Positions 9,865 through 29,030 of a stretch of 64,000 nt of DNA are shown piece after piece. Source of the stretch: an uncultured Gammaproteobacteria bacterium (lineage in GTDB: Bacteria > Pseudomonadota > Gammaproteobacteria > Arenicellales > CAJQKF01); NCBI GenBank assembly GCA_905478855.1, contig CAJQKF010000006.1, forward strand, positions 52,019 through 116,018. The letters run 5' to 3'. Both the position numbers and the translations under genes were made by a program. Every line of letters begins with the position of its first letter. Position 1 is the first letter of the stretch. The notes below the pieces were generated by a model, which saw only the letters and a program-made list of their open reading frames with translations, searched no databases and was not told the DNA's origin.

Positions 9865-9980
9865 TATAAATAGACTCTTCGTTAGTTAATCTGACAATAA
9901 TTCGATGACCCTTGCGCGCGTGCCTTACTTGTCCTTAATCTTGTGATATACACCTCTAGACTGGTTGCTGTCTGTTTCTC

Positions 9981-10949: not shown

Positions 10950-10957
10950 AAAGAAAA

Positions 10958-11425
10958 GTGGAACTTTTTGTCGATAACCAAACCGACAGTAAAGAAATTC
11001 CCTCTGATTTGGAAATTGCTGGTTGGGTATCTGCTGCATTGGCTATACAAACTGATGATTATCATGAATTGGGAATTCGCATTATTAACGAGCAGGATAG
11101 TAGTTATCTAAATTCTACTTATCGGAATAAAGGCGGAGCAACAAATATATTGTCATTTCCATGTGAAAGCCCTGCAGGGATCGATATTAGAATCTTGGGT
11201 GACCTTGCGATATGTCAACCGGTTGTGGCAAGGGAGGCTATGACTCAAGGAAAGCCCTATCGTTCACATTTTGCACACATGATAGTCCATGGTGTCCTCC
11301 ATTTGCTGGGTTACGATCACATGGTCGATAAAGATGCCCAAGAAATGGAGCAAATCGAAATAGCCGTGTTAGCGAAAATAGGGATTAAAAATCCATATAT
11401 AATCAATGAGGAACAAAATAGTTAA
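10958..11425 (+). CDS. ybeY: rRNA maturation endoribonuclease YbeY
   Basis: Zn motif HGVLHLLGYDH. GTG start. Conserved miaB-ybeZ-ybeY-corC-lnt order. Confidence 0.9.
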   Translation: MELFVDNQTDSKEIPSDLEIAGWVSAALAIQTDDYHELGIRIINEQDSSYLNSTYRNKGGATNILSFPCESPAGIDIRILGDLAICQPVVAREAMTQGKPYRSHFAHMIVHGVLHLLGYDHMVDKDAQEMEQIEIAVLAKIGIKNPYIINEEQNS

Positions 11426-11426
11426 T

Positions 11427-12275
11427 ATGAACGACTCTCAATCAGGGTTTCGTAAGGGATTACAGAGATGGTTTCAGCGCGTATTGGGTCAAGGTTATAC
11501 GCGCGAAGATTTATTTGAGATACTTCGTGAGGCCGAAAAACAAGGTTTACTCGGTCAGGATGCCTTAGATACTATCGAACGTGTGGTTCAAGTATCTGAG
11601 CTTCAGGTTCGCGATATTATGGTTCCTCGTGCGCAAATGATCGTTCTTGACAAGAGCGATAGTCCACGGGAAATGTTACCTACCATTATTGAATCAGCAC
11701 ATTCGCGGTTTCCGGTAACTGACGGCGACAGGGATAAAGTTGTGGGCGTTTTATTGGCAAAGGATTTACTCAGACTCTTTCAGGATGATAGTGAGACATT
11801 TTCTTGGCGAGACATGTTGCGTCATGCCGTAGTAATTCCCGAAAGCAAGCGCTTGAATGTTTTACTCAGTGAGTTTAGGGCTAGTCGAAATCATATGGCA
11901 ATTGTTGTCGACGAGTATGGAGGTATCGCTGGACTCGTAACTATTGAGGATGTGTTGGAGCAGATTGTTGGTGAAATTGAGGATGAGCATGATGTTGATG
12001 AAGAAGAAGGCATGGTCATGCAACGTGCTGAAAATGAGTATGTCGTAAAGGCCGTCATTGATCTAGAGGATTTCAACGAATATTTATCAGCCAATCTCGA
12101 CCATGAAGAGTTCAATACATTAGGTGGCGCGGTTGTTAGTCATTTCGGATACGTGCCTCAGCGAGGTGAGTCTGTTAAATTTTCTGGATTTGCATTTGAG
12201 GTTTTAAATGCGGACAGCAGACGTATTCACTTATTGCGTGTTGATCGTTTATCTACTCAAGATGCAAGTGATTAG
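11427..12275 (+). CDS. corC: CorC/HlyC-family Mg/Co efflux-associated protein (CBS pair + CorC_HlyC domain)
   Basis: CBS-pair region (..VRDIMVPRAQM..) and transporter-associated C-terminal domain. ATG at 11427 preferred over 11406. Confidence 0.85.
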   Translation: MNDSQSGFRKGLQRWFQRVLGQGYTREDLFEILREAEKQGLLGQDALDTIERVVQVSELQVRDIMVPRAQMIVLDKSDSPREMLPTIIESAHSRFPVTDGDRDKVVGVLLAKDLLRLFQDDSETFSWRDMLRHAVVIPESKRLNVLLSEFRASRNHMAIVVDEYGGIAGLVTIEDVLEQIVGEIEDEHDVDEEEGMVMQRAENEYVVKAVIDLEDFNEYLSANLDHEEFNTLGGAVVSHFGYVPQRGESVKFSGFAFEVLNADSRRIHLLRVDRLSTQDASD

Positions 12276-12283
12276 TACATTTT

Positions 12284-13795
12284 ATGTTCGCGTCACTTTT
12301 TGAAGTTTTAGAAAAAGTATTAACACGACGACCACTACTATCTGGCTTTTTATTGGGTCTGTCAGTTCCATTCGCTTTCGCACCATTTTACTGGTTTTGG
12401 CTAATGCCGTGTGCCCTTGCCGGTCTTTTTGTTATTCAGTATCGACTTCCCGTAAGGCTCGCCATAAAAAGTGGTTTTGTCTTTGGCTTTGCGGCTTTCG
12501 GTGTTGGAGCCTCGTGGGTCTATGTCAGTCTCCATACGTTTGGCGGAATGCCGATGTTGTTAGCTGGCTTTTGTGTTGTAGTCTTTGTCGGTATCCTTTC
12601 TTTGTATCCTGCACTCGCGGCTCTTCTTTATAATCGTATTTCACACTCGAATATTCAGATCCAACTATTGTGCATTATGCCAGCATTTTGGGTGCTCATC
12701 GAAGTGGTGCGGAACTATCTTTTTGGAGGATTTCCATGGCTTGAAACGGGCTATAGTCAGTCCGGTATTTTTCTTGATGTGTATGCCTCCATTACAGGTG
12801 TTCACGGCTTATCGTTGATAGTAGCCATTCAGGCGGGCTGTCTTGCGTCGATTTGTCTATGTAAAGGAAAGAATTGCTTGATTCCAGTAGTTATTCTAAT
12901 GATGATAATCATTGGTGGGAAGCTTCTATCGTGGCACGATTGGACTCAGCCCCGCGGTGATACGATTAATGTTGCTATGGTTCAATCGGTTATCCCTATA
13001 GAAACTAAGTGGAATCCTGAAAAACGCAAGTATATTCTTGATAAGTATTTTAGGCTGAGCTCTCAATTTAATGATGCGGAGTTGATTATTTGGCCGGAGG
13101 CTGCAATTGCATCTAGTTTGGATCAATTGGATGCTGATTTTTTTGAACAATTACAACGTCTCAATAAGCCACTTTTGGCAGGCTTTGTTGAGCGCGGTTA
13201 TGGAGAAAAAATAAACGATTCTTATAATGCGGCGGTATTATTTGCAGAGGAACCTGATATTTATCGTAAACGGCATTTGGTTCCGTTTGGAGAATATATG
13301 CCATTGCGATTTATGCTGGATCCAATAACCCATTATCTCAATATACCAAACTCTTCTATGAGCCCCTGGAACGAATTTCAAAGCCCAATGTATTTCGCAG
13401 GCCACAGGCTTGGAATCGGAATATGTTTTGAGGAAGCCTTTCCAGCGGATATGCGGAACATTGCAAAGGATGCTGATGTATTAATCAATCTAAGTGAAGA
13501 TGGGTGGTTTGGGCGTTCTCTCGGGCCACATCAAAGATTACAAATGGCCCAGATTCGGGCGATTGAGACTGGGCGCCCCAGTTTGCGTTCAAGCAATACG
13601 GCACTAACTAGCCTAATTGACCACAAAGGACGCATTGTAAAAATAACCAAGTCCCACGTAGAAGAGGTATTGCAAGTAATCGTCCAGCCTCGACAGGGAC
13701 TAACACCCTATATGCGCTATGGTGATTTTTTGGTGTTTCTGATTTTAGCTGTTATGTGTTTACCGGGCGCCTTTAGTCGATGGCGGTTTCGTTGA
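12284..13795 (+). CDS. lnt: apolipoprotein N-acyltransferase
   Basis: Multi-TM N-terminus and CN-hydrolase domain (..IIWPEAA.., ..IGICFEEAF..). 503 aa. Confidence 0.9.
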   Translation: MFASLFEVLEKVLTRRPLLSGFLLGLSVPFAFAPFYWFWLMPCALAGLFVIQYRLPVRLAIKSGFVFGFAAFGVGASWVYVSLHTFGGMPMLLAGFCVVVFVGILSLYPALAALLYNRISHSNIQIQLLCIMPAFWVLIEVVRNYLFGGFPWLETGYSQSGIFLDVYASITGVHGLSLIVAIQAGCLASICLCKGKNCLIPVVILMMIIIGGKLLSWHDWTQPRGDTINVAMVQSVIPIETKWNPEKRKYILDKYFRLSSQFNDAELIIWPEAAIASSLDQLDADFFEQLQRLNKPLLAGFVERGYGEKINDSYNAAVLFAEEPDIYRKRHLVPFGEYMPLRFMLDPITHYLNIPNSSMSPWNEFQSPMYFAGHRLGIGICFEEAFPADMRNIAKDADVLINLSEDGWFGRSLGPHQRLQMAQIRAIETGRPSLRSSNTALTSLIDHKGRIVKITKSHVEEVLQVIVQPRQGLTPYMRYGDFLVFLILAVMCLPGAFSRWRFR

Positions 13796-13812
13796 TGGGT
13801 TTCACTGGTTTA

Positions 13813-15159
13813 CTACAGTAAAAAAATTGTCGCCAAGCCGAGTACTGATAAAAACCCGATTATGTCAGTGATAGTTGTTAATGCGACCCCGGCTGCCAAA
13901 GCGGGATCGATTCCGAGTTTATCCAAAGCCAGCGGTAGAAGCACACCTGCGGCGGCGGCGGCCATAAGGTTAATTATCATGGCAAAGCCGATTATTAGTC
14001 CCAGAGCGATATTTTGATACCAAATAGTTGCGATCACCGCAACTACAAGTGCCCACAAGATTCCGTTCAGACTACCAACCATAAACTCTTTGCGTAGGAC
14101 GCGAGTTGCATTTGCGGCGTTTATTGTCCCAGTTCCAATGCCTCGTATTACAATAGTGAGTGTTTGTGTTCCGGAATTACCGCCCATATTTGCAACTATT
14201 GGCATTAGCACCGCTAAAGCAACCAATTGTTCAATTGTCGCTTCAAAAATTCCGATGACAAATGATGCCATAAACGCTGTAAGTAAATTCACCCCAAGCC
14301 AGAGTGCTCTCTTTCGTGTGCTTTGGGAGACGGGTTGAAAAATATCATCTTCTTCGTTGAGTCCCGCACGTACCATAACATTACGATCAGCATGTTCCTG
14401 AATTACATCTACAACGTCATCAATGGTAATTCTTCCAAGTAATACGCCGTCATCGGAAATTACCGGCGCGGAAATTAAGTTATATCTTTGAAACGCATCG
14501 GCAACGTCTATTTCCGATGTAAGCGGCTTGAATGTTATGGGCTCTCTATCGACCACATCGGCAACCATTTTTTCGCTATCAGTAGTTAAGACGCTAGATA
14601 AAAATAGTACTCCTTGAAGATGGTTTTCGCGGTCGACGATAAACAGTTTATCGGTGTACTCAGGTAAAGTGGCTTTCAAGCGGAGGTAGCGCTGAACAAC
14701 TTCGAGGGAAATATCCTCTCTAGCGTGTATAGTATCAACATTCATGAGCCCGCCGGCTGTATCTTCAGGATAGGCAATTAGTGAGTTAAGATCTTGCCTG
14801 GATTCTTTATCAACCGTATACAGTATGTCTGCAATGACGTTGTCTGGCAGAAGCGGAATAATATCGGCGATATCGTCCATATCGAGCGTCTGCACGGCTT
14901 TGGACAAAATGTTTTCGTCCATTTCACGTATTAAATCTCTTCCAACGCCTTCGGCTACTTCTACGAGCACTTCACCCATCCGATTTAAGTCGATGCGGGT
15001 GATGATTGGTATTCTATCTTCCGGTGGTAGTCCTTCCAGCAAATCTGCAATATCTGCAGGATGCAGGCTTGTTGCAAGCTGATTTATTTCGTCATCTTCG
15101 CCTTCATCTAAGGCTCTCAGAATTAATTTTTGAATGTCAGATTGTTCTAATTGCGGCAT
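13813..15159 (-). CDS. mgtE: magnesium transporter MgtE
   Basis: MgtE N-domain, CBS pair, and five-TM C-terminal region with ..GNSGTQT.. 448 aa. Confidence 0.9.
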   Translation of the reverse strand: MPQLEQSDIQKLILRALDEGEDDEINQLATSLHPADIADLLEGLPPEDRIPIITRIDLNRMGEVLVEVAEGVGRDLIREMDENILSKAVQTLDMDDIADIIPLLPDNVIADILYTVDKESRQDLNSLIAYPEDTAGGLMNVDTIHAREDISLEVVQRYLRLKATLPEYTDKLFIVDRENHLQGVLFLSSVLTTDSEKMVADVVDREPITFKPLTSEIDVADAFQRYNLISAPVISDDGVLLGRITIDDVVDVIQEHADRNVMVRAGLNEEDDIFQPVSQSTRKRALWLGVNLLTAFMASFVIGIFEATIEQLVALAVLMPIVANMGGNSGTQTLTIVIRGIGTGTINAANATRVLRKEFMVGSLNGILWALVVAVIATIWYQNIALGLIIGFAMIINLMAAAAAGVLLPLALDKLGIDPALAAGVALTTITDIIGFLSVLGLATIFLL

Positions 15160-15220
15160 GGCTGTTGAAGGCGTTAATTAAGATTAAACACAAAATTCTA
15201 AATTATTATCAGTTAGGTTT

Positions 15221-17584
15221 TTATTGCTCTTGTGCGTTTTGGACATGACTAAATCGATCTAATTGGTTGGCGGGTTGTGAATCGTTGTCTCGCAATAAGT
15301 TTGGAACTAGTTGTGCTGTAATCGCTCGACTAAAGTAAAAACCTTGAACATAATCGCACCGTCGGCTCTCTAATAATTTAAGTTGGACTTCGTTTTCAAC
15401 GCCTTCAGCAACGACCTTCATGTTCATATTATGAGCCATATTGATCATTGCACTGACTATTTCTAAAGAGCTAGAGTCGCTTTCCATATCATGAATAAAT
15501 GACTGGTCGATTTTTATTGTGTCGACGTCAAACCTTTTGATTGAAGACATTGAAGAATAGTCCGTACCAAAGTCATCGATTGAAAGCTTAACACCAATAT
15601 CGGTGAGTCGATTAACGGTCTCAACAGCATTCTCAATGTTTTCTAAGATGGTTGTTTCGGTGATTTCAATGTTTATCGATTCAGGCATTAGGTTAAAATC
15701 AGATAGGGTGCTATGTATTCTGGAGAATAAATTCTTATCCCGAAATTGACGTGCTGATAGATTTATAGAGACCGGAACCAAGTCAAAGCCCTGTCTTTTC
15801 CATTCTGCTATATGGCGGCAGACTTCACGGAGAATCCAATTTCCAATGGAGAAAATCAATCCTGTTTCTTCAGATAGTGGTATGAATTCTGAGGGTGATA
15901 TTGAACCAAGAGCTTTACTGTTCCAACGCACTAGAGCCTCTAGTCCAATTATTTTTCCACTATGTAAATCAACTAATGGCTGGAATTCGATAAAAATTTC
16001 CTCACGGCTCAGTGCCATACGCAAGTTCCGTTCCAGTTCAACCTTTCGATACGCGGTAAGCTGCATTTCCTTATTATATTGCTGGACATTACCACCACCG
16101 AGAGATTTGGCGTAGTAAGCCGCAGTATCTGCTGCGTGAATTAGCGATTTCAACGAGGTGCCATGAGTCGGATATATAGATATGCCGATAGATGCGGTAA
16201 TATAAGCCTCGGCAGCGCCGATACTTACGCTTCCCGACACTGTGCGCAATATGTTTTCTGCAAGTGATCGACAAATTCTCATCGCCGTATCGCCTGCTGG
16301 CAATTCATTAACAAGTAGGGCAAATTCATCTCCACCATAACGTGCAAATATATTTTTTGGCGAAGCGTACTCTTTGAGTTTATTAGATACGTGTTTTAGA
16401 ACTGAATCCCCGCTAGGATGACCAAAACTATCGTTTATTATTTTAAAACGATCGAGGTCGATAAATATAAGCGCAGCATATATGCCTCGCTGATTGGCAC
16501 TTTGTAGATAGTTTTGTGTGAGTTCTTCGAAATAAGCGCGACTATATAGACCGGTTATGTGGTCATGCCGAGCTAGTTGCTCAACATGTTTGTGTGCTTC
16601 GACAAGTTGAGTTACATCGTGGAAGATTCCAACAGTGTCACCATTGGGAACACGATGCTCACTTATTCTAAAAACTAAACCTGAGGAGTGTTCGAGTTCG
16701 AAAAACCCCACCGGTTCGCGATGCCATTGTAAAAATTTGTTGAGACGTTCTTGATAATAATATCCTGAAACAGAATAAGTGTCGCTTTGTATTAGAGAAA
16801 TGGCGACTTCTCTGTACGACATATTATAAAGCATGGTTCTTACATCCAAATTGAACAATCGCCTAAATCGTGAGTTACATAATACAAGGTTATCGTGCAC
16901 GTCGAATAAGACGAACCCTTCGCCAATTGTTTCAATGGAGTCAACCATGCGGTGCTTCATTGCCGAGACTCTTGATTCTGCACTTCTCCGACGAAGAAAT
17001 AATACAACAACGCCTAAAAGAAAAATGGTTGCAACCAGAATGATCTGAAATAGATTGCGTTTTAGATGTTCTGTTGTAACCCCATCGGCCACCCGATGAG
17101 TTGATAGAATCCGCTCGCGAAACTCGAATTCAGCGTTTTCTACTAAGCGATTGACATGAGTAGTAAGGCTTGACTCATCAAGACCGGCTGTTTGGAGGAA
17201 ATTTAAAATCTCGAGGATAGCGTTTGTTAGATCTTGTCGTGCGAGTGATTCTAACTGAGAATGGGAGCTATGGGATTTGGTGCTAAGAATAGAAATAAGT
17301 TGATTAAGCTGCTGTCGAGTGCGTACTAGATTAATAGTGGTTGTCTGAATAAATTCGGCCTCGGTGATCGATTTGAGATTGTTAACCGATTGATTAATCG
17401 CATTCAGAACAGGTGATCGTCTGACTACAGAGCTAATCAATTGATCCTCTAGTTGATCAAAACTGATTTTTGTTGAGTAACCTAGCCCAGAAGCGACTGT
17501 TATAACGAGGATAAAAAACAGTGCGGCAAGCCAATCAATATTGTTTTGACGATCTATCGATGTTTGGTTCTGACGTATTGACAT
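15221..17584 (-). CDS. membrane-bound sensor protein with PAS, GGDEF and EAL domains
   Basis: Two TM helices bracket a helical periplasmic region of about 150 aa. Intact RYGGDEFALL (GGDEF) and GLEALVRW (EAL) plus ..DDFGTDYSS... Confidence 0.9.
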   Translation of the reverse strand: MSIRQNQTSIDRQNNIDWLAALFFILVITVASGLGYSTKISFDQLEDQLISSVVRRSPVLNAINQSVNNLKSITEAEFIQTTTINLVRTRQQLNQLISILSTKSHSSHSQLESLARQDLTNAILEILNFLQTAGLDESSLTTHVNRLVENAEFEFRERILSTHRVADGVTTEHLKRNLFQIILVATIFLLGVVVLFLRRRSAESRVSAMKHRMVDSIETIGEGFVLFDVHDNLVLCNSRFRRLFNLDVRTMLYNMSYREVAISLIQSDTYSVSGYYYQERLNKFLQWHREPVGFFELEHSSGLVFRISEHRVPNGDTVGIFHDVTQLVEAHKHVEQLARHDHITGLYSRAYFEELTQNYLQSANQRGIYAALIFIDLDRFKIINDSFGHPSGDSVLKHVSNKLKEYASPKNIFARYGGDEFALLVNELPAGDTAMRICRSLAENILRTVSGSVSIGAAEAYITASIGISIYPTHGTSLKSLIHAADTAAYYAKSLGGGNVQQYNKEMQLTAYRKVELERNLRMALSREEIFIEFQPLVDLHSGKIIGLEALVRWNSKALGSISPSEFIPLSEETGLIFSIGNWILREVCRHIAEWKRQGFDLVPVSINLSARQFRDKNLFSRIHSTLSDFNLMPESINIEITETTILENIENAVETVNRLTDIGVKLSIDDFGTDYSSMSSIKRFDVDTIKIDQSFIHDMESDSSSLEIVSAMINMAHNMNMKVVAEGVENEVQLKLLESRRCDYVQGFYFSRAITAQLVPNLLRDNDSQPANQLDRFSHVQNAQEQ

Positions 17585-17912
17585 TGTTATGCTCGACTTA
17601 ACCTGTTGGTCGATTTGAAGCGGGCTTTATGAAGTGTTTCTTGCTTTGCATCACTAAAAGTCTCTTATAGACTTATATTAGTTCATTGCTTATGTTTTCT
17701 GATCTTAAAAATTTACTGACAACACTTGTCTCGGTAAATATTCGTCGAAACTCGGTGGACTTCTTCATACTAAAATCGGCGCATCCGGCTCTGTTGTTTA
17801 CAATAATTATCCGACTCGGGACAGTCTAGCGAAGAAGAATGATTATTGCGAGGTGAAGAAATTCATTGATTTGAAGATACTAAGTTTTGGCATCACACGA
17901 TACAATGCATCT

Positions 17913-18809
17913 ATGAGTATTAATTCAGAAAAAATGAAAATTGCAATATCTTCCCGTGCGTTATTCGATCTGGAAGATAGCCACAGGGTTTTTCAGGAAA
18001 AAGGTGTAGATGCTTATTGTCAGTATCAGATCGAGCACGAAAACGAACCCCTGGAGCCAGGTGTAGCTTATCCATTAGTGAAAAAACTACTGGCTCTGAA
18101 CGAATTTCTGACTGATTCAACTAAAGTGGAGGTGGTTCTTATTTCAAGAAATAGTGCCGATACTGGTTTGCGCGTGTTTAATTCCATTAATCATTTCAAT
18201 CTGGATATTTCCAGAGCAGCATTTTCCGGTGGAGAAAGTCCGTATCGGTATATTCAACCTTTTGAAACAAACCTTTTTCTTTCCGCCGACCCATTGGATG
18301 TTGCGAGCGCTTTAGAGCTGGGTATTGCGGCAGCCACGATACTCCCTTCTCGTACAGGAGAAATTGTACATGATCAGTTAAGAATCGCATTTGATGGTGA
18401 TGCAGTGTTATTTTCTGACGAGGCTGAGCGGGTATTTCGGGAACGCGGGTTGGAAGAGTTTAGTAATCAGGAGCGTCAATCTGCCAGAACTCCCTTACTC
18501 GGAGGACCATTCAAAAAGGTGCTGTCAGCGCTTCATCGTTTGCAGGTGGAGTTTCCCAGTGATAATCCGCCAATTCGAACAGCCCTGGTTACTGCCCGAG
18601 CGGCACCGGCGCATGAAAGAGTGATTCGTACGTTACGAGCTTGGAATATACGAATTGACGAAGCTGTCTTTTTAGGTGGGCTTCCTAAAGGCAAGTTTCT
18701 GGAGACTTTTGGGGCGGATATCTTTTTTGATGATCAACGTGGGCATTGTGATTCAAGTCGTGAGCATGTTCCAACCGGGCATGTTCCTCACGGCATTGCT
18801 AATGGTTAG
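17913..18809 (+). CDS. 5'-nucleotidase family protein (Legionella cN-II-like family)
   Basis: ..KIAISSRALFDLEDSHRVFQEKGVDAYCQYQ.. and ..RIAFDGDAVLFSDEAERVF.. recall the bacterial 5'-nucleotidase family. Start uncertain (GTG 17853, ATG 17913 or ATG 17934). Confidence 0.65.
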   Translation: MSINSEKMKIAISSRALFDLEDSHRVFQEKGVDAYCQYQIEHENEPLEPGVAYPLVKKLLALNEFLTDSTKVEVVLISRNSADTGLRVFNSINHFNLDISRAAFSGGESPYRYIQPFETNLFLSADPLDVASALELGIAAATILPSRTGEIVHDQLRIAFDGDAVLFSDEAERVFRERGLEEFSNQERQSARTPLLGGPFKKVLSALHRLQVEFPSDNPPIRTALVTARAAPAHERVIRTLRAWNIRIDEAVFLGGLPKGKFLETFGADIFFDDQRGHCDSSREHVPTGHVPHGIANG

Positions 18810-18906
18810 GTACATAACTGCGCAGTTGAATTTTATTCGTGATGTTAGTCTATTCTGGCCGTGTCTGGTTTTACCGCAGTCATACAACTTTTTCTGGAGA
18901 TGATTT

Positions 18907-19587
18907 ATGCAGTCCTATGCTATTGCGCCGTCTATACTTGCTGCTGATTTTGCTCGTTTGGGTGAAGAAGTAGACAACGTCTTAACTGCGGGCGCAGATA
19001 TTATCCATTTTGATGTGATGGATAATCATTATGTTCCTAATCTTACGTTTGGTCCCTTCATCTGTGAGGCGCTGCGAAAACACGGTGTTACCGCTCCAAT
19101 TGATGTGCATTTAATGGTAAAGCCTGTTGATCGAATAATTCCTGATTTTGCACGAGCAGGTGCCACCTACATTACGTTTCATCCTGAAACAAGTGATCAT
19201 ATCGATCGCACATTGCAATTAATTAGAGAACACGGTTGTAAACCTGGCCTTGTTTTCAATCCAGCAACCCCGTTGGATTGTTTAGAATACATATTGCATC
19301 ACCTGGATATGATCTTAATTATGTCGGTAAACCCAGGGTTTGGCGGGCAGGCTTTTATTCCTCAAGCATTGGATAAACTTCGCAAAGCTCGTCAGTTGAT
19401 TGACGCCAGCGGAAAGGATATTCGTCTTGAGATCGATGGCGGGGTGAAGACCGACAATATTTCCGAGATTGCCCAGGCTGGGGCGGATACTTTTGTTGCC
19501 GGTTCTGCGATATTCGGCTCGAGCGATTATGCTGCTACGATTAAGAAAATGCGGGATCAGTTAGACCCAATTAAAAGTGCACAATAA
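18907..19587 (+). CDS. rpe: ribulose-phosphate 3-epimerase
   Basis: ..[41 protein letters not shown].. 226 aa. Confidence 0.95.
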
Positions 19588-19595
19588 GCTACAAC

Positions 19596-20291
19596 ATGAG
19601 CAGTAATATCAAACATCCTATTGAATGTCAGGTGCTATTTATTGATTTGGATGGCACGTTAGTCGATTCTGTGCCGGATATGGCAACTGCAGTTAATCGA
19701 ATGCTAGTTGATTTAAAATTTCCCGAGGTCGCTGAATTCCAAGTTCGTACATGGGTAGGAAATGGCCTTCCGCGATTAGTGCAACGAGCGTTATGGGGGC
19801 AGTTTGATGCCCCGGAAGAGCATCCCGATTTAGAGTCTGCAGTCTCCCTTTGTCGAGCGCACTATACGGATTGTATACACGATCAAACACAATGCTACGA
19901 CGGTGTGCAAGATTCCTTGTTGACGCTTGCTGAACAAGGTTTCAAATTGGTGTGTATTACTAATAAACCAGAAAGCTTGAGTCGTACGTTACTATCATTT
20001 TTGCCAATAGGTAACTACTTTTCCTTGATTTTGGGTGGGGACAGTTTAGCAACTCGAAAACCAGACCCTGGGCCGTTATTCTATGCGGCTCGCCATTTCA
20101 ATCTGGATATTTCGGACTGTTTGATGATTGGCGATTCAAGTAGTGATATAAACGCGGCAAAATCTGCAGGATGTGCATCAATTTGCGTTTCCTATGGCTA
20201 TAATCAGGGCATAGATCCTGTCTCTCTAGGCCCAACGGTTATTGTTGATCATTTTCCCGAAATTCTTGATTATGTTGTTTTCAAAGCCTAA
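19596..20291 (+). CDS. gph: phosphoglycolate phosphatase (HAD family)
   Basis: HAD motif I FIDLDGTLVDS, motif II ITNK, motif IV GDSSSDI. rpe-gph-trpE order. Confidence 0.85.
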   Translation: MSSNIKHPIECQVLFIDLDGTLVDSVPDMATAVNRMLVDLKFPEVAEFQVRTWVGNGLPRLVQRALWGQFDAPEEHPDLESAVSLCRAHYTDCIHDQTQCYDGVQDSLLTLAEQGFKLVCITNKPESLSRTLLSFLPIGNYFSLILGGDSLATRKPDPGPLFYAARHFNLDISDCLMIGDSSSDINAAKSAGCASICVSYGYNQGIDPVSLGPTVIVDHFPEILDYVVFKA

Positions 20292-20300
20292 ATTTAATTT

Positions 20301-20354
20301 ATGAATACTCCGGTACGTTTGTCTTTCCTCAACCCCATTTTTTTTCGTTGGTGA
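20301..20354 (+). promoter_or_regulatory. candidate trpE leader peptide (MNTPVRLSFLNPIFFRW*) with a weak downstream hairpin and T6
   Basis: 17-codon ORF ends Trp-stop (TGG 20349-51, TGA 20352-54). cgttg (20346-50) / cggcg (20357-61) could pair (two G-U pairs), followed by T6 at 20364-69. Weak. Confidence 0.25.
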
Positions 20355-20400
20355 CACGGCGACTTTTTTCATCGTCTAGTCACTTTTTACGGAATTCAAT

Positions 20401-21897
20401 ATGCTTTCTAAACAACAATTCGAAAATTATAAGTCCGCCGGTTTTAATCGAATACCGGTGGTTCGTGAGATACTTGCGGATCTCGATACTCCAGTTAGTA
20501 CATTTCTAAAACTAGCCAATCAATCTTATTCCTATCTTTTTGAATCCGTTCAGGGTGGCGAGAAATGGGGGCGATACTCAATTATCGGTTTGCCATGTGA
20601 AACTCGAGTTACAGTTCATGGCGATGTGCTAAAAGTTATCCGTGGGGATGACGTTATCATGGAAAAAGTAACCGAAGACCCTTTGCAAGAGATAGCGCTA
20701 ATTCAAACGCAATATAAAATTCCAGAAATCGAAGGTGTTCCCAAGTTCTCAGGTGGGCTGGTTGGCTATTTTTCATACGATACGATTCGTTACGTCGAAC
20801 GAAAGCTGGGGCCAAGTAATAAGCCAGACCCCATAGCAGCGCCAGATATCCTTCTAATGCTCTCTGAAGAAGTGATTGTTTTCGATAATTTGCGTGGGCG
20901 GCTTTATGTCATTGTGCATGCCGACGTCGAAAATGATGATGCATACAGCGTAGCTTGCAAGCGGGTTGATGAAGTTGTTTTTCAATTAGCCACGGGTCTT
21001 GATGATACGCAAACTGAACACACAGTCGAGACGATAGATGAGGACTCTTTTGAGTCGTCATTTGCCCGAGAGGATTTTGAAGAAGCTGTAGAACAGTGTC
21101 GTGACTACATCAAAAGTGGTGATGTATTTCAGGTTGTTTTGTCACAACGGTTAAAAGTTCCTTTTAAAGCCAGGCCCATCGATTTATATCGAGCATTACG
21201 AACGGTCAACCCTTCACCGTATATGTTTCATCTTGATTTAGGTGACATGTATGTCGTTGGTTCCTCCCCTGAAATTTTGGTGCGGTTGGAAGATGACGAG
21301 GTAACCGTTAGGCCTATAGCTGGAACGCGACATCGTGGCAAAACGTTGGACGAAGATGAACAGCTAGCCGATGATTTGATGGCAGACCCAAAAGAGCTTG
21401 CCGAGCATCTTATGCTCGTTGATTTGGGAAGAAACGACGTGGGTCGAATTGCGAAGATTGGAACGGTTAGACTTACCGAGAAAATGATTGTTGAACGATA
21501 TTCACATGTAATGCACATTGTATCTAACGTGGTTGGAGAACTATGCCCCGAACTTGATGCCTTAGATGTACTGCGTGCATCCTTTCCCGCTGGCACGGTA
21601 TCAGGAGCGCCTAAAGTCAGAGCGATGGAAATTATTGATCAGTTCGAGCCTGAAAAACGTGGCGTTTATGCGGGAGCTGTCGGCTATCTTGGATGGCACG
21701 GTAATATGGATACGGCTATTGCGATTCGTACAGCAGTAATAAAAAATGAAATGCTTTATGTGCAAGCGGGTGCGGGCATAGTTGCAGATTCAGTGCCCGA
21801 AAACGAATGGCTTGAAACAATGAACAAAGCACGCGCTGTATTCAAAGCGGTATCGGTTGCCTTAGCCGGCTTAAATAACGCTAGTACAAAGTTCTAG
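20401..21897 (+). CDS. trpE: anthranilate synthase component I
   Basis: ..YSYLFESVQGGEKWGRYSIIG.., ..PSPYMF.., ..GTVSGAPKVRAMEII.., ..GAGIVADS.. 498 aa. Confidence 0.95.
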   Translation: MLSKQQFENYKSAGFNRIPVVREILADLDTPVSTFLKLANQSYSYLFESVQGGEKWGRYSIIGLPCETRVTVHGDVLKVIRGDDVIMEKVTEDPLQEIALIQTQYKIPEIEGVPKFSGGLVGYFSYDTIRYVERKLGPSNKPDPIAAPDILLMLSEEVIVFDNLRGRLYVIVHADVENDDAYSVACKRVDEVVFQLATGLDDTQTEHTVETIDEDSFESSFAREDFEEAVEQCRDYIKSGDVFQVVLSQRLKVPFKARPIDLYRALRTVNPSPYMFHLDLGDMYVVGSSPEILVRLEDDEVTVRPIAGTRHRGKTLDEDEQLADDLMADPKELAEHLMLVDLGRNDVGRIAKIGTVRLTEKMIVERYSHVMHIVSNVVGELCPELDALDVLRASFPAGTVSGAPKVRAMEIIDQFEPEKRGVYAGAVGYLGWHGNMDTAIAIRTAVIKNEMLYVQAGAGIVADSVPENEWLETMNKARAVFKAVSVALAGLNNASTKF

Positions 21898-21982
21898 GAG
21901 TCATATTTATGCATTTACTACATGCGCTGCAAATCGCCTCCCACTTGAGTAGCTGACCGACCGATTGTAGCGTATCAATTGC

Positions 21983-22099
21983 CACATTCCACGGTAACAT
22001 CGCGACGAAGCCATCGACAGTGGCAGGCGGCTCTTTAAAGATATGCACCAGATAAGTATCCGCATTGTGCCCATTGAGCATGACGGTATTAACCAGGCC
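21983..22099 (-). mobile_element. IS66-family transposase C-terminal remnant (about 40 aa, no catalytic domain)
   Basis: ..LVNTVMLNGHNADTYLVHIFKEPPATVDGFVAMLPWNV.. matches the conserved IS66 TnpC tail pattern (..NG.nP..YL......P.......LLPWN.). Nothing upstream in the frame. Abuts the trpE stop. Confidence 0.5.
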
Positions 22100-22236
22100 A
22101 TACAAGTTAGCCGAGACTGTTCAGTTTACACTCGCTTTTTCTATACTTTTAGAAACTACTATCTAACACAACTATACTTTGTGATATTGCTTTTATGGGT
22201 CTTTCCAATTTGCAGGCTTAAAAAAAACATCGAACG

Positions 22237-23721
22237 TCATCGTTCCACAAATCCACTATACTGAAAATAGTTGTCCCATTTAGAATCCAGTATTCTCAAT
22301 GCTTCACCCAATGGTGGCACACTGAATTGACCATTTGAATGTAATAGGAGGTGATCGTGAGTTAACTTCTTCAGTGCATCATCAACTTCGAAATCAACCT
22401 CTTCGTCAAAAAGCCTGTTCAATACTTCTTCACAGCATCGATCAAGATCACACTCATTCATATTTCCGTATTTCCACAGACAATAATAGCTAAGAACAAC
22501 CTCTTTAAACTCCTGCTCTTCCAGTGACTCAACCAAATAAAAAATCACACCCAGATCGTTATCCAGATTCTTGTTATAGAGGGATTCTGTAACAACATAC
22601 TGGTACCGATCTCGAGATGCTTTAAATCCAAACACAATTTTAGCGGCGTAGCCTAAGATCGTGCCGATTGCAACCAGTGCCACAACTGGGTTTAACGCGG
22701 CTGCAAGAATCATCTTCGCTAAGCCTATACCCAACCCTACGACACCTGTTACTGCTAATTTCACAAGATCAAGCGGCTTCATGGAGATGCGCTTTTCCGG
22801 AAATACCACCTCAAGATCAGCCATTGGTATGTCCCGAAACGCCTTGATTTGAATTGCCGATGTGGTTTCCTCATCCGCTACCAACGTGCGGTATAGGATG
22901 ACAACTTGTGCAAAAGTAGGTTCTTGAATAGCCGTTCGTTGAAACAACGATATAAAACTAACACCGACATGCTTGAGCGATATCCGATTCACCAGCCGTT
23001 TAGCATGCATATGACTGGAATGTCCGTTATCGGAAGCGTCAATTCCATTTTTAGAGTCAGAGTTTGCCATCGATACAGGTTCAGCAGGTTGACCCGTAAG
23101 TATCTTCCATCCAGCCCGAATCTTTTGATTAAAGGCTAAAATTAGTCCCAAACTATTAATGAGAACTCGAGAAACAAGCGTATCCAACTTTTGCAGTGTC
23201 AGAAACCCCTCAAATCGATCAATGCCGACACCGCGACGATATACTAAGATTCGATCAAAAAAATCAGGAACATCCTTGCTAGAAATACCTGTTTGTTGGC
23301 TAAAATACCTGCTAAGCATCCTGTCGTCGAATTTATCCCAGTCAATTTGGATCGGTAAATTGAAGAGATACTCCTCACTGTCGGCGACGTCGATATCCTT
23401 TTGGGTTAACGGACAAAAATTCGCCTTATTCATGAGTTCGATAAAGTTCCCCAAAAAACGATTCTCTAATGCATCTGAGCGAGCACTAGAATTAATGTCA
23501 TTATCGACAGTTTTTTTGTCAGAGGAATTGAGTGCTCTAAAATCCTGGTTTAATTCTTTTGCTAATTCATGATGCTCAAAATGGTAAACGGCTTCGATGA
23601 TTCTGCAGAAATCCGAAAATTCCTTACGAGTGTTTTCATCCTCTATGGTGCTTAGCAGAGCGCTAATAAACTGGTCTATTGGTATCGAGATATAATGCCC
23701 GTGCTCTACGGCTATTTGCAT
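22237..23721 (-). CDS. orphan membrane protein, tentatively TMEM143/DUF3754-like (494 aa)
   Basis: Long clean ORF. Paired TM helices (..LVKLAVTGVVGLGIGLAKMILAAALNPVVALVAIGTILGYAAKIVFGF..) preceded by ..FRDIPMADLEVVFPEKRISMKPLD... The family call is from memory of that family's pattern, not a search. Confidence 0.7.
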   Translation of the reverse strand: MQIAVEHGHYISIPIDQFISALLSTIEDENTRKEFSDFCRIIEAVYHFEHHELAKELNQDFRALNSSDKKTVDNDINSSARSDALENRFLGNFIELMNKANFCPLTQKDIDVADSEEYLFNLPIQIDWDKFDDRMLSRYFSQQTGISSKDVPDFFDRILVYRRGVGIDRFEGFLTLQKLDTLVSRVLINSLGLILAFNQKIRAGWKILTGQPAEPVSMANSDSKNGIDASDNGHSSHMHAKRLVNRISLKHVGVSFISLFQRTAIQEPTFAQVVILYRTLVADEETTSAIQIKAFRDIPMADLEVVFPEKRISMKPLDLVKLAVTGVVGLGIGLAKMILAAALNPVVALVAIGTILGYAAKIVFGFKASRDRYQYVVTESLYNKNLDNDLGVIFYLVESLEEQEFKEVVLSYYCLWKYGNMNECDLDRCCEEVLNRLFDEEVDFEVDDALKKLTHDHLLLHSNGQFSVPPLGEALRILDSKWDNYFQYSGFVER

Positions 23722-24286
23722 ATGTTCTCCAACGTTGTCTAAATTTATTTCTGATTGTCCTTGAGGCGATCTTGTAGAATCTTATATTCTCGAGAGACTT
23801 AATCATTAAATGATGTTTATGAATAATAACGGAGTTTTCAATAGAGTTTCCAGTAGCACCAGAAATAGGAAAGTCTATATTAAAGTCATTTCTTGATAGT
23901 TATCAAAAATTCATTTTAATTGCTGAGAATATCTCCACATCAAGTCCGGATGATTTAAAGCAGGAACTTTCTAATGCTGTTTCTGCTAAATAATTAAGTA
24001 GTATCGAGAATAACTTTGGCTGAAGTCTATAATCGAAGTATGCTGAATTTGTTTTAGATACATTAGATGTGTGTACAATATCGTAACTTGATCAGCGAGA
24101 TTGAGACTGGTACGAATCTGCAACTTACAATCAATGTAAACTCGCACAATGAAGCTGTATTTGTTAAGTATTATTACCAAATCGGATGCGATTTCATAGT
24201 TTCGTAATAATCAAAAGTGGGTATTTTTGCGGCTACCTTCAATGTATGTATAAAAACATGTTTAAAAACAGAGAGATATAGTTTTA

Positions 24287-24856
24287 ATGTTATTAATGAT
24301 CGATAATTATGACTCGTTTACTTACAACTTAGTTCAGTACTTTGGGGAATTAGGTGGCGAAGTTGTTGTTCATCGAAATGACCAAATTACGGTGGATCAA
24401 ATTCGCGATTTAGCACCAAAGCATATTGTAATTTCACCCGGGCCTTGTACACCGACGGAAGCTGGGATTTCACTGCAGGTGGTAAAGGAGTTTGCAGGCC
24501 GTATTCCCATTCTAGGTGTGTGTCTCGGACACCAAAGCATAGCTCAGGCGTTTGGTGGAAAAATTGTTCTGGCAAAAACGTTAATGCATGGCAAAACTTC
24601 AATGATTTATCATCAACAGGATGGCCTATTTACGGGCTTAGACACACCTTTCCAAGCGACACGTTACCATTCGCTGGTAGCGGAGGAGAAATCGCTACCG
24701 GATTGTCTTCGCGTCACGGCTAGAACCGATGATGAAGAGATTATGGGAATAGAGCATAAAACAATGCCGGTGTTTGGAGTCCAATTTCATCCTGAATCAA
24801 TTCTTTCACAGTATGGGCATAAAATGCTCGCAACTTTTTTGGAGTACACGTTTTGA
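24287..24856 (+). CDS. trpG: anthranilate synthase component II / aminodeoxychorismate synthase glutamine amidotransferase
   Basis: GATase-1 triad context: GVCLGHQ (Cys), ..VQFHPES.. 189 aa. Confidence 0.95.
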
Positions 24857-25671
24857 GCATCAATGATATTCCTGATGTGTTGAGTAAAATTCTCGACGAA
24901 AAGAAAGCAGAAGTGCAAGCACGCAAACAAACAATATCTGAGCACTTGTTGATCCAACAGATTTCGGAGTTGCATCCCTGTCGAGGATTTGTTGATGCTA
25001 TCCGGTCTAAAGTGAGTCGAAACGAACCCGGAATAATTGCCGAGATAAAGAAGGCTTCTCCGAGTAAGGGCGTTATTTGTGAGAATTTCGTTCCTGCGGA
25101 AATTGCCAAGGAGTACGAGAAAGCCGGTGCTGCCTGTTTGTCAGTGCTTACAGATGAAAAGTTCTTTCAGGGTTCTAGTGAATATCTGCTGCAAGCACGG
25201 GCTGTTGTCGATATACCTGTGCTACGTAAGGATTTTATGATTGATGCCTACCAAATCATTGAGTCTAGAGCTATGGGAGCTGATTGTGTGTTGCTTATTG
25301 TGGCAGCTCTGGAGGATCAGATAATGATTGAGCTCGCGGAACTGGCAAATAAACTTGGAATGGATATACTGGTTGAAGTTCACAATGAGTCAGAATTAAA
25401 GCGAGCTCTGCAGTTACCTACAGTATTAATAGGCATAAATAACCGTAATCTACGGAATTTTGAAACAAGTTTGAATACAACTATCAATCTGCTAGATATG
25501 ATCCCACAAGATCGGATAGTTGTTACCGAAAGTGGAATACATACTCATGCAGATATTTCGTTAATGAAAGAAAATGGCGTAAACTGTTTTCTGGTGGGCG
25601 AAGCGTTTATGCGCGATACAAATCCAGGGAATCGATTACGGGAATTATTTTTTACCAAGCAGCAGCAGTAA
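24853..25671 (+). CDS. trpC: indole-3-glycerol-phosphate synthase
   Basis: ..[13 protein letters not shown].., ..[13 protein letters not shown].., ..LRKDFMID.., ..IGINNRNL... TTG start overlaps the trpG stop (TTGA). Confidence 0.9.
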
Positions 25672-25680
25672 GGGTGTATT

Positions 25681-26097
25681 TTGAAAGCAATAGTAAAACT
25701 TCGAGACGGCGTTTGTTTTGATGCAACTACGGAGTCTGGACATACCATAACAATGGATGGGGCACCGGAGCATGGTGGGTTGGACCGGGGATCGCGGCCC
25801 ATGGAACTAATGCTGAGTGGTCTTGGTGGTTGCAGTGCGTTTGATGTGGTACATATCTTACGTAAGGCCAGACAAAAAGTAGAGGGTTGTGTTGTTGAAC
25901 TGGAGGCAGAAAGACACAACGAGCCGCCTAGGGTGTTTACAAAGATTCATCTCCATTTTAAAGTTTCAGGTCAAAATTTAAGCAAAAGCAAGGTGGAGCG
26001 AGCAGTGCACCTTTCTGCTGAAAAATACTGCTCGGCTTCTATAATGCTGTCTAAATCGGTAGAAATTACGCATGATGTTGAAATTCTGGATTCCTAG
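25681..26097 (+). CDS. OsmC-family protein
   Basis: ..RPMELMLSGLGGCSAFDV.. and ..SAEKYCSASIML.. (two conserved Cys regions of OsmC/YhfA-like proteins). TTG start. Confidence 0.8.
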   Translation: MKAIVKLRDGVCFDATTESGHTITMDGAPEHGGLDRGSRPMELMLSGLGGCSAFDVVHILRKARQKVEGCVVELEAERHNEPPRVFTKIHLHFKVSGQNLSKSKVERAVHLSAEKYCSASIMLSKSVEITHDVEILDS

Positions 26098-26123
26098 TTG
26101 TTTGTCTTAAGCGAGGCCGGCTG

Positions 26124-27185
26124 ATGTATCTAATTTCTGATTGGTTTAAAAAGAATCTCTCAAACCAGGAAGTCGTATTTCTGGCGTTTGTACTGTTGCT
26201 TGTTTTTAGCATTATTGTGCTGTTGGGTGATATTCTGGCACCGGTGCTCGCGAGTATCGTAATAGCGTATTTATTGGAGGGTATTGTTAAAGCGATGCAA
26301 CGCAGTCGTGTGCCACGCTTGTTGGCCGTGGCATTTGTATTTGTTGTATTTTTACTAAGTTTAACCATTCTTATTTTCGGTCTTTTACCCCTGCTGTCCC
26401 ATCAGCTTTCAGAGGTGGTTCAACAAATACCAAACATTTTGGCTCGTGGCCAAGAGGCTTTATTACGGTTGCCATCAAAATATCCAGAAATTTTATCGGT
26501 TGATCAAGTAAAGGAAATGATCAGCGTGCTTCGACAGGAGTTAACATCCTGGGGCCAACAAGTCTTGACTCTCTCGCTTTCCTCAGTGGTAGGATTAATC
26601 ACGATACTTCTCTATTTAGTGTTAATGCCCATTCTAGTTTTCTTTTTCTTAAAAGATAAAACCACGATTTTAAATTGGTTATTACGCTACTTACCTACTG
26701 ACTATAGATTGGCCCATCGCGTTTGGCTGGATGTAGACAAACAAATCGCCAACTATATACGTGGGAAATTCTGGGAAATATTAATTGTGTGGATAGTGTG
26801 TTTTTTTACGTTCACATTTTTAGGCTTGCAATATGCCATGCTGCTTGGGTTGCTTGTAGGACTGTCAGTGCTTGTGCCTTTTGTAGGTGCTGCTGTTGTC
26901 ACTATACCCGTTTGCCTTATCGCTTGGTTTCAATGGGGATGGTCAAGTGAATTCATGTATGTGACTATCGCATATCTTGTGATCCAGGCGCTCGATGGTA
27001 ATTTACTGGTCCCCATTCTTTTTTCAGAAGTGGTTAATCTTCATCCAGTCGCAATCATTACTGCGGTATTAATATTTGGAGGAATATGGGGTATTTGGGG
27101 AGTATTTTTTGCAATACCCCTCGCAACCCTTGTGCAAGCGGTTTTATCTACGTGGCCCCAGATAGCAGACGAGAAGAATATTTAG
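26124..27185 (+). CDS. AI-2E family transporter (PerM/YdiK-like permease)
   Basis: 353 aa, about 8 TM helices, with typical ..YIRGKFWEILIV.. and ..LVPILFSE.. segments. Confidence 0.8.
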   Translation: MYLISDWFKKNLSNQEVVFLAFVLLLVFSIIVLLGDILAPVLASIVIAYLLEGIVKAMQRSRVPRLLAVAFVFVVFLLSLTILIFGLLPLLSHQLSEVVQQIPNILARGQEALLRLPSKYPEILSVDQVKEMISVLRQELTSWGQQVLTLSLSSVVGLITILLYLVLMPILVFFFLKDKTTILNWLLRYLPTDYRLAHRVWLDVDKQIANYIRGKFWEILIVWIVCFFTFTFLGLQYAMLLGLLVGLSVLVPFVGAAVVTIPVCLIAWFQWGWSSEFMYVTIAYLVIQALDGNLLVPILFSEVVNLHPVAIITAVLIFGGIWGIWGVFFAIPLATLVQAVLSTWPQIADEKNI

Positions 27186-27353
27186 GGCCCCATAAGATCG
27201 CTATCTAATGTCGTAAATAGCGTATGAAATTCGAGATCAGATTGTTTTTCTAGGCTTAATTAGATATTTGACCCTTGCAAAAACCATTAAAATAAATTAA
27301 AAAGCAAGCACTTAATAAAAATATTTTGGAAATTTAAATGCTTTCATACGGTT

Positions 27354-28649
27354 ATGTCACAATATGATAATCCTAATGTAGAAGTGCAAGGACGTGCGTC
27401 CTATCTGGTTACCGAAGGTCTCGAGAATCAGAGTGATGTGCGTCAGAACACTGATGGCTCACGCAGATACGAACGTTATATTCTGGATAGGGTAGTCGAT
27501 TTTTTGGGTAGGCCTGCCATCCGCTTTGAACTGTGGGACGGCTTTGGTGTTAATGGTCAAGAAGGTGTTACGTTGGTTGGCACTGTTCGCATTAAAACCC
27601 GTGATGCATTTAATAAGTTACTATCCGATGTGCATGTAGGGCTTGGAGATGAATATAGTGCTGGGCGCATAGTAGTTGATGGTGATCTGGTTGATGTTTT
27701 GACAGAAACGTTTGCTCACCTTGACCAACAATCCGGGCGGTTTGGCTGGATTCAAAAGGTTTTTCGACGAAAGCGGAAAATGAATACCATAGCTGGGTCT
27801 AAGCAAAATATTTTCCATCATTATGACTTAAATAACGATTTTTATGCTTTGTGGCTTGATCGGGAAATGCAATATACCTGTGCGTATTTTGCCGATGATC
27901 ATTTTAGTCTGGAAGATGCACAGTTAGCTAAAATGGACCATATCTGTCGAAAACTGCAATTAAAACCTGGTGACAGGGTTGCCGAAGCGGGAAGCGGTTG
28001 GGGAGGGTTAGCACGGCACATGGCGCTGTATTATAGCGTGCACGTAACATCCTTTAACATATCCCAGGAACAGGTGAGTTTTTCACGAGAGCGTGCGGCT
28101 CGTGAAGGATACAGTGATCGAGTTGATTATGTAGAGGATGATTATCGAACGCTTACAGGAGAGTATGATGCGTTTGTCTCAGTTGGTATGCTTGAACATG
28201 TCGGGCAAGAAGGATTTAATGAACTGGGTCGAGTAATTAATCGTTGCCTTACACCAAACGGTAGAGGCTTGATTCATAGCATTGGTCGGAACAGACCGGC
28301 TAATATGAATGCTTGGATTGAAAAGCGAATTTTTCCTGGTGCCTATCCACCAGCTCTAAGTGAAATGATGGATATTTTTCAACCAAATAGTCTCTCCATC
28401 GCTGATGTCGAGAACCTGCGATTGCATTATGCCCGCACATTAGAGCATTGGTTACATCGGTTTGAGAAATCTGTCGATACGGTTGAATCGATGTTTGATC
28501 CTGTATTTGTTAGACTATGGCGCTTGTATTTGTCGGGATCTATAGCGGCTTTTCTTTCAGGGAATCTGCAGTTATTTCAAGTCCTGTTTAACAGGGAGCG
28601 CGACAATTCAGTCGCGTGGACTCGGGATCATATCTATCCAAAAAACTAG
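27354..28649 (+). CDS. cfa: cyclopropane-fatty-acyl-phospholipid synthase family methyltransferase
   Basis: ..HYDLNNDFYALWLDREMQYTCAYF.., SAM motif VAEAGSGWGGLA, ..SVGMLEHVG... Confidence 0.85.
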   Translation: MSQYDNPNVEVQGRASYLVTEGLENQSDVRQNTDGSRRYERYILDRVVDFLGRPAIRFELWDGFGVNGQEGVTLVGTVRIKTRDAFNKLLSDVHVGLGDEYSAGRIVVDGDLVDVLTETFAHLDQQSGRFGWIQKVFRRKRKMNTIAGSKQNIFHHYDLNNDFYALWLDREMQYTCAYFADDHFSLEDAQLAKMDHICRKLQLKPGDRVAEAGSGWGGLARHMALYYSVHVTSFNISQEQVSFSRERAAREGYSDRVDYVEDDYRTLTGEYDAFVSVGMLEHVGQEGFNELGRVINRCLTPNGRGLIHSIGRNRPANMNAWIEKRIFPGAYPPALSEMMDIFQPNSLSIADVENLRLHYARTLEHWLHRFEKSVDTVESMFDPVFVRLWRLYLSGSIAAFLSGNLQLFQVLFNRERDNSVAWTRDHIYPKN

Positions 28650-28709
28650 GAAATTGCTAAATTTCACGGACTTTTGTTGTATTCTATTGTGTTGTAGGAC
28701 GCTGGGTAC

Positions 28710-29030
28710 ATGTTAAAAGTTTACTCATCTATTAACCTATTTGATGCCTATATTGTCAGGGATACGCTGAATGATGTAGGAATAAGTTGTTTCATATGCA
28801 ATGAACATGTCTCCGGTGCATTGGGTGAATTACCTTACACTGAGTCGTGGCCGCAGGTATGGATAACGCAGAATTTGCATTTCGATCGTGCGCGTGCTCT
28901 TGCTATGGAGTTCGAAAAAAACTCGAATACAGGTTCCGTATTATATTGTAAACCTTGTAATGAGTTTGGTTCTCCGGGGTTTGAATGTTGTTGGAAATGC
29001 GGACTGGATTTGCAGCCAGATGAAGGATAG
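28710..29030 (+). CDS. DUF2007-like small protein with C-terminal CxxC...CxxC zinc-ribbon
   Basis: N-terminal ..LFDAYIVRDTLNDVGISCFICNEH.. pattern and C-terminal CKPC...CWKCG. Confidence 0.55.
   Translation: MLKVYSSINLFDAYIVRDTLNDVGISCFICNEHVSGALGELPYTESWPQVWITQNLHFDRARALAMEFEKNSNTGSVLYCKPCNEFGSPGFECCWKCGLDLQPDEG

Follow-up and report, generated by a model that had tools for sequence, protein, structure and literature searches.

The locus described here raises the question of why trpE and trpG, which as a rule nearly adjoin each other, lie about 2.4 kb apart in the genome of an uncultured marine gammaproteobacterium. The interval was studied within a 64-kb stretch of contig CAJQKF010000006.1 (the window, whose coordinates are used throughout). 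In it trpE (anthranilate synthase component I; Pfam Chorismate_bind, E 1e-94, and Anth_synt_I_N) forms the left flank at 20401–21897 and trpG (glutamine amidotransferase; Pfam GATase, E 4e-61) the right flank at 24287–24856, both on the plus strand; the end of trpE at 21897 and the start of trpG at 24287 had been placed correctly by an initial annotation made from the sequence alone. The intervening segment is very probably a small, old and partly eroded genomic islet at the trpE/trpG junction. It comprises a remnant of an IS66-family insertion sequence (IS) beside trpE, one intact minus-strand gene encoding a 494-aa protein of the DUF3754/TMEM143 family, and an AT-rich spacer ahead of trpG.

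The limits of the segment were obtained by comparison with relatives. A trpE scan of GTDB gave relatives of at most 64% identity among the matches listed, and closer trpE relatives (83%, 73%, 72%, 72% and 70% identity) were reached through a protein database. The closest relative other than a sister strain, L093 (trpE 83% identical in amino acid sequence, GC 0.40), is syntenic with the window on both sides of the junction, the common order being 5′-nucleotidase, rpe, gph, trpE, trpG, trpC, OsmC and AI-2E transporter genes, continued by CMAS, DUF2007, PBP1A, DciA, M23 and SecA. The trpE–trpG gap measures 10 bp in L093 and 2 bp in L096 (trpE 72%), and both contigs are colinear with the window on either side of it. 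In blastn comparisons, window positions 17901–21899 corresponded to L093 503–4477 and positions 24286–28999 to 4485–9187, both at ~71% identity. Homology to L093 thus stops at 21899 and restarts at 24286, so that colinearity breaks at the boundaries which the initial annotation had proposed for an insertion.

A tight junction (5–50 bp) was also the rule among 80 more distant loci, tight junctions prevailing across ~60 loci from several phyla. Independent metagenomes (Mediterranean SOLA series, JGI and SRA) yielded 22 contigs encoding the exact 494-aa protein, with the same layout in all, and the ten of these that were compared with the window were 99.95–100% identical to it; since the same arrangement recurs in independent metagenomes, it is not an assembly artefact. 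These comparisons show that the ancestral state was a tight trpE–trpG junction of 2–12 bp, for which the empty form can be written as the artificial sequence trpE...TAGGAGTCAAAAGTTATGTTATTAATG...trpG, and that ~2.38 kb (21904–24286) is extra in the species of the window.

The only intact gene of the segment (22237–23721, minus strand) had been regarded as an orphan, a view that the database searches did not sustain. The 494-aa product matched Pfam DUF3754 (PF12576) with E 2e-28 and 99.5 bits against a cut-off of 27, over profile positions 1–137 of 137 and residues 270–391, and 86 database homologues were aligned end to end, with 98–99% query coverage for most of them. Outside its own species (≥99% identity) the best homologues were only 47–48% identical. 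All named homologues of at least 38% identity belonged to Planctomycetota, followed by Myxococcota (~31%) and eukaryotes (~30%), and none of the 86 matches, own species aside, was gammaproteobacterial. The surroundings of four of the best homologues were of planctomycete type (DUF1501, PF07638 ECF sigma factor, sulfatases and PF07596), and in them no conserved neighbours, no nearby trp genes and no linkage to IS66 were seen. In a neighbour-joining tree, computed without support values, the window protein formed a long branch within the planctomycete clade. A planctomycete ancestry of the cargo gene is supported by these data, and the closest homologues and the nesting in the tree agree with the horizontal acquisition suggested at the outset. 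With the DUF3754/TMEM143 family the protein shares the match to the whole profile, the full-length alignment including the N- and C-terminal regions, and a two-helix hairpin; it differs in the phylum of its host, the named bacterial members found being from Planctomycetota and Myxococcota and the rest from eukaryotes.

In composition the gene resembles its present host. Its GC content is 0.416 and its GC at third codon positions (GC3) 0.404, with a synonymous-codon likelihood of z +0.19 relative to the 52 other genes of the window, whereas the homologous genes have GC 0.54–0.64 and GC3 0.66–0.85. The windowed GC and codon-usage analysis that had been put forward as a check on foreign origin was consequently negative, the gene looking native. 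All 26 columns that are invariant in a 41-sequence alignment are retained by the window protein. From the native GC, GC3 and codon usage we infer an old, ameliorated acquisition, in which the gene would have been kept under purifying selection while its silent sites drifted to the composition of the host.

The trpE-proximal part of the segment (21920–22117, minus strand) consists of a probable degenerate right terminal repeat, a 3′ untranslated part and the last ~50 codons of an IS66-family transposase gene. IS66 elements carry the genes tnpA-tnpB-tnpC, their termini begin GTAAGCG, and they are accompanied by an 8-bp target duplication. The Pfam profile IS66_C matched the minus-strand tail below threshold (E 0.0042; 17.7 bits against a cut-off of 30). 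A tblastn search against 7.3 Gb of plasmids matched 3030 records, and each of the 15 records listed (E 3e-3) was annotated as an IS66-like ISEc23-family transposase; the amino acid identity of the tail to ISEc23 was 43%. A phmmer/HMMER scan of 1.84 billion representative proteins led to the 548-aa protein P0217 (E 3e-9), which bears all four IS66 Pfam domains (DDE_Tnp_IS66, zf-IS66, LZ_Tnp_IS66 and IS66_C), and BLASTP aligned the window peptide with residues 497–547 of P0217, its extreme C-terminus, with 31 identities in 51 positions (61%). The contig of P0217, L100, contains a complete 2.5-kb IS66 element (tnpA, tnpB and tnpC) with the termini GTAAGCGCC... and ...GGCGCTTAC. Compared with the whole window, L100 matched by blastn only at 22023–22098 (76 bp, 77.6% identity, E 8e-11) and its transposase by tblastn only at 21968–22117 (E 4e-13); no other IS66 piece was detected in the 64 kb by tblastn with full TnpC, TnpA and TnpB or by blastn with L100. 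The transposase fragment described in the initial annotation is thus real and lies on the minus strand beside trpE as reported, its extent being ~50 codons (21968–22117) instead of the ~40 codons at 21983–22099 given there.

The transposase stop codon has been lost from the remnant, and the reading frame continues to 21881. The L100 element ends 40 nt past the stop codon, and a corresponding distance in the window leads to ACATGCGCTGCAAATCGCCTCCCAC (from 21920), which resembles GTAAGCGCCGAAAAACACCCAC. The candidate right end, ACATGCGCTGCAAATCGCC at 21920 (~21920–21947), is degenerate and a weak match (~12 of 17 positions), suggestive of a terminal repeat that would lie ~22 bp from the trpE stop codon and is assigned tentatively. 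The remnant faces trpE and is set off from its stop codon by 6 nt of native gap and 16 nt of unassigned DNA. The likeness to ISEc23 and L100 accordingly comprises the last ~50 codons of tnpC and, for L100, the matching distance to a GTAAGCG-like end, while tnpA, tnpB, the catalytic domain, the left end, the target duplication and the stop codon are missing: in the remnant only the IS66_C tail region was recognized, with neither the DDE_Tnp_IS66 catalytic domain nor zf-IS66, and no left end (left inverted repeat, IRL) or 8-bp target duplication was found. To judge from its sequence, the stretch is a dead fragment in which the last ~200 bp (about 8% of the element) survive, in keeping with the partial erosion claimed initially.

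A pattern search of metagenome contigs for a trpE end followed within at most 30 nt by a trpG start revealed a sister strain, L103, which is 98.85% identical to window positions 9343–21903. In L103 (12555–13289) a native gap of 12 bp (GAGTCAAAAGTT) follows the trpE stop codon; next come the opening 21 nt of trpG (ATGTTATTAATGATCGATAAT) and then, replacing trpG, foreign DNA. The foreign DNA codes for the N-terminal part of a P4-type integrase (Pfam Arm-DNA-bind_3, E 6.5e-15), cut after 64 residues by the apparent start of an IS91-type transposase (Zn_Tnp_IS91, E 2.5e-4, below the Pfam cut-off). The arrangement was present in four independent assemblies (L103–L107), all of which end inside the IS91-like repeat, so that the far end of the island is not visible. 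The first 21 nt of trpG in the window (24287–24307, plus strand, encoding MLLMIDN), a candidate attachment (att) core, are 100% identical to L103 12567–12587. The MLLMIDN codons are conserved across 44 loci, codon positions 1 and 2 being invariant, and by virtue of this conservation the 5′ end of trpG would be a stable integration target. Site-specific integration that restores its target gene leaves as its signature a duplicated gene end beside an integrase gene, and P4-type islands usually target the 3′ ends of tRNA or tmRNA genes. The sister strain resembles such islands in having the Arm-DNA-bind_3 N-terminus directly after the duplicated 21-nt gene end, and the window in having insert-derived DNA upstream of the trpG ATG; both differ from them in that the core would lie at the 5′ end of a protein-coding gene, and the window differs further in containing no integrase and no second core copy.

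The same junction has received other DNA in related lineages. Among six of these it is empty in two (L093 and L096) and filled in four different ways, the cargo varying between L095, L099, L098 and the sister strain: a toxin-antitoxin pair (MazE-like and PIN_3) in L095 and L094, a family-1 glycosyltransferase (GT1) in L099, and in L098 a block of several genes, among them SnoaL, LacI and a TRAP transporter. In more distant Gamma- and Betaproteobacteria the gap holds a TPM-domain gene, a dCache-PAS-GGDEF gene, an ion channel gene (Ion_trans), a DUF4397 lipoprotein gene or an unannotated gene. No duplicate of the trpG core was found in the other occupied loci (L003, L004, L006, L021, L031, L099 and others). 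The initial annotation had appealed to the trpE–trpG integration site of Pseudomonas, and this precedent is documented, R-type pyocins and syringacin being situated between the two genes (PMC4684702). The window shares with the Pseudomonas tailocin site (R/F-type pyocins; P. aeruginosa and P. syringae) the flanking gene pair and the presence of acquired DNA that varies with the lineage, other lineages keeping trpE and trpG adjacent. It differs in size and content, one 494-aa membrane-protein gene and an IS stump (2.4 kb) standing in place of a 15–25 kb phage-tail cluster and the insert being devoid of phage-related genes (PHROGs and BFVD negative), and the host, an uncultured and distant gammaproteobacterium of marine origin, has no trpD in the trp cluster at this locus. 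The idea of an equivalent trpE–trpG hotspot in this lineage, also raised initially, is strongly supported by these data. In L094, a contig from a metagenome-assembled genome at NCBI, the MazE/PIN interval (11495–12890) looks degraded relative to L095; the PIN gene is uncalled there, and trpG is likewise uncalled despite a trpG-like open reading frame (ORF).

At the left edge of the insert, the six nucleotides after the trpE stop codon (GAGTCA, 21898–21903) equal the first 6 nt of the 12-bp gap of L103 and are a remnant of the native trpE–trpG gap. The next 16 bp (21904–21919, TATTTATGCATTTACT) are unassigned and differ from the native gap; neither a significant copy of the trpG 5′ core nor a target-site duplicate was found in them. 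Searches for terminal repeats, a target duplication and the pair AAGTTCTA/TAGTTTTA gave nothing beyond chance. At the left junction the start of trpG (its first 29 nt) seemed to recur in inverted form (score 13, p 0.0004–0.015), a reading rejected because the matching GAGTCA is native gap sequence in L103. Downstream of the DUF3754 gene, its 3′ flank (22118–22236) has no homology to IS66 or to the relatives, and a weak terminator-like hairpin (22232–22245, minus strand) followed by a T-run is found at its boundary with the gene. Altogether 339 bp (GC 0.428) separate trpE from the 494-aa ORF and 565 bp separate that ORF from trpG.

The latter 565 bp (23722–24286) have a GC content of 0.317, as against 0.425 for the window and 0.367 for all its intergenic DNA. 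The AT-richness remarked on initially, and the lack of an ORF with a homologue, are therefore correct as observations; the other divergent spacers of the window (GC 0.28–0.34) encompass the value, so that it is usual for DNA of this kind. The spacer matched nothing in the relatives, Pfam, Rfam or tRNA searches. It contains a stop-free stretch of 56 codons (23823–23990, plus strand) of protein-like composition without an ATG, GTG or TTG start; a 54-aa ORF (P0237) is called at these positions by the JGI and ENA gene callers, and a homologue was found nowhere outside the species of the window. Promoter-like sites occur in the spacer, for example at 24004–24033 (plus strand). Just before the trpG start codon (ATG) the window reads ...GAGAGATATAGTTTTA, unlike the native gap found in L103, which argues that the spacer DNA came with the insert and now supplies the ribosome-binding region of trpG. 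The spacer would also be the divergent promoter region of the locus, with putative promoters for the DUF3754 gene on the minus strand and for trpG-trpC on the plus strand. In L093, trpG-trpC is presumably co-transcribed with trpE.

How the DNA entered is less clear than that it did. Of three entry routes, the one ranked highest takes the segment to be the relic of a tyrosine-integrase element that integrated into the first 21 nt of trpG, its integrase and left att site having been deleted later with IS66 involved. It owes this rank to the sister strain, with its 21-nt core duplicated beside an integrase N-terminus at the same junction, and to the right junction of the window, where trpG is directly preceded by insert-derived DNA unlike the native gap, as expected for a right attachment junction (attR); the IS66 stump, moreover, sits where the sister strain has its integrase. 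Set against this are the lack of a detectable second core copy at the left junction and of an integrase remnant anywhere in the insert, the absence of sequence similarity between the insert and the island DNA of the sister strain, and the far end of that island, hidden where the contigs break in the IS91-like repeat. The route is therefore possible and stays well short of an even chance. IS66 elements are common carriers and markers of islands, and delivery of the DUF3754 gene by IS66 itself, through composite or one-ended transposition with decay sparing only the trpE-proximal IS end, would accord with an IS66 3′ end whose probable terminal repeat faces outward ~22 bp from the trpE stop codon. 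We consider this unlikely, given that neither a further copy or fragment of IS66 nor an IRL nor an 8-bp duplication exists in the window, that the native gap and the IS end are parted by 16 bp of unexplained DNA, and that none of the four genomic contexts seen for the nearest homologues shows a link to IS66. The third possible route is replacement by homologous recombination, the donor being a strain that already carried the finished islet.

That the DUF3754 gene was ancestral at the site and was precisely lost in the relatives would account for its GC, GC3 and codon usage, indistinguishable from those of the 52 other window genes, through simple vertical descent. This is highly improbable in view of the tight junctions that prevail in distant loci and in the closest relatives alike, the best match of 48% being planctomycetal with no gammaproteobacterial homologue in 86 matches, the transposase stump adjoining the gene, and the different cargos that relatives hold at the same site.

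The preferred reading, an eroded islet of foreign origin, can be set out as a sequence of events. Foreign DNA would have landed at the 5′ boundary of trpG; the sequence there is conserved and appears to have served at least one tyrosine-integrase element as its core. An IS66 element would then have inserted, and through deletions the bulk of the IS would have been lost together with whatever integrase and further cargo was present. Selection would have kept the DUF3754 gene until its codon usage became native, and trpG-trpC, separated from trpE by an antisense gene, would now depend for its transcription on read-through or on a promoter within the AT-rich segment.

Several observations weigh against this reading. 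The assignment of the IS66 terminal repeat rests on a weak match, and the promoter- and terminator-like sites are as numerous as in shuffled sequences. The donor call depends on 47–48% identity and a distance tree without support values, many of the homologues being unnamed. No compositional anomaly was found in the insert by windowed GC, GC3 or codon likelihood. No empty site was found within the species, the nearest being that of L093 at ~71% nucleotide identity. The insert has no terminal inverted repeats and no 8-bp target duplication; on the left the second copy of the 21-nt trpG core is absent, a decayed direct copy being not significant. Any entry mechanism proposed for this particular insert is accordingly hypothetical.

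A bolder proposal is that a family of P4-type integrase elements uses the first seven codons of trpG as its attachment core, and that this is the mechanistic reason for recurrent landing between trpE and trpG across Proteobacteria, including the pyocin locus of Pseudomonas, with the DUF3754 islet as one decayed product that brought a TMEM143-like gene from Planctomycetota. We hold this doubtful as a whole. A tyrosine-integrase element with an apparent core at the 5′ end of trpG could nevertheless explain the classical trpE–trpG hotspot, and a TMEM143/DUF3754 gene captured and kept in a gammaproteobacterium would offer a simpler host in which to study the family. Neither point overturns anything known, and the islet is ordinary in kind. 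The locus is a worked example of a tight biosynthetic operon junction turned landing pad for foreign DNA, with metagenomes of a single uncultured marine lineage displaying that junction empty, filled in different ways and eroded.

As to the cargo protein, an AF2 model (pLDDT 86.9, pTM 0.83) consists of an N-terminal alpha/beta region, the DUF3754 beta-sheet and a C-terminal helical domain of winged-helix-like appearance, the likeness of the C-terminal ~80 residues to a winged helix reaching only non-significant levels in a fold search of PDB. Model and hydropathy agree on a two-helix hydrophobic membrane hairpin at residues ~316–368 (helices 316–340 and 345–384). The most that can be said is that the protein would be membrane-anchored and cytoplasm-facing, with both large domains predicted on one side. 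The suggestion that the surviving gene is retained cargo agrees with its full length, the invariant columns kept and the confident AF2 fold. No match for the protein was obtained in NCBIfam, PADLOC or PHROGs, and no sequence or fold relative in PDB and no viral fold match in BFVD. PADLOC found no known defence-system protein, the MazE/PIN pair of L095 being the only toxin-antitoxin-like cargo, and a literature search returned no functional paper on any DUF3754/TMEM143 member. On two short, low-coverage ENA contigs of the same species (P0209/P0210 and P0211/P0213) the gene is split into two ORFs, which could reflect a frameshift, a rare pseudogene allele or an assembly error.

Downstream of the islet, trpC (24853–25671, plus strand; Pfam IGPS, E 4e-98) overlaps trpG by 4 nt. 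The gene trpD is absent between the two, as it is in L093, L095, L096 and L099, and tblastn with a Methylophaga-type query gave no trpD match in the 64-kb window or in the contigs of the relatives; the order trpG-trpD-trpC is present in more distant gammaproteobacteria. In the clade of the window trpD must be located elsewhere or have been replaced. The GC content shifts within this one syntenic clade, from 0.425 in the window and 0.40 in L093 to ~0.65 in L095, L096 and L099, and the gene order around trpE is unchanged across the shift. No tRNA and no Rfam family was found anywhere in the 64-kb window. The most deviant synonymous codon usage among its 53 long ORFs belongs to the gene at 57332–58492 (plus strand; z −3.2, GC 0.471), which may be another acquisition.

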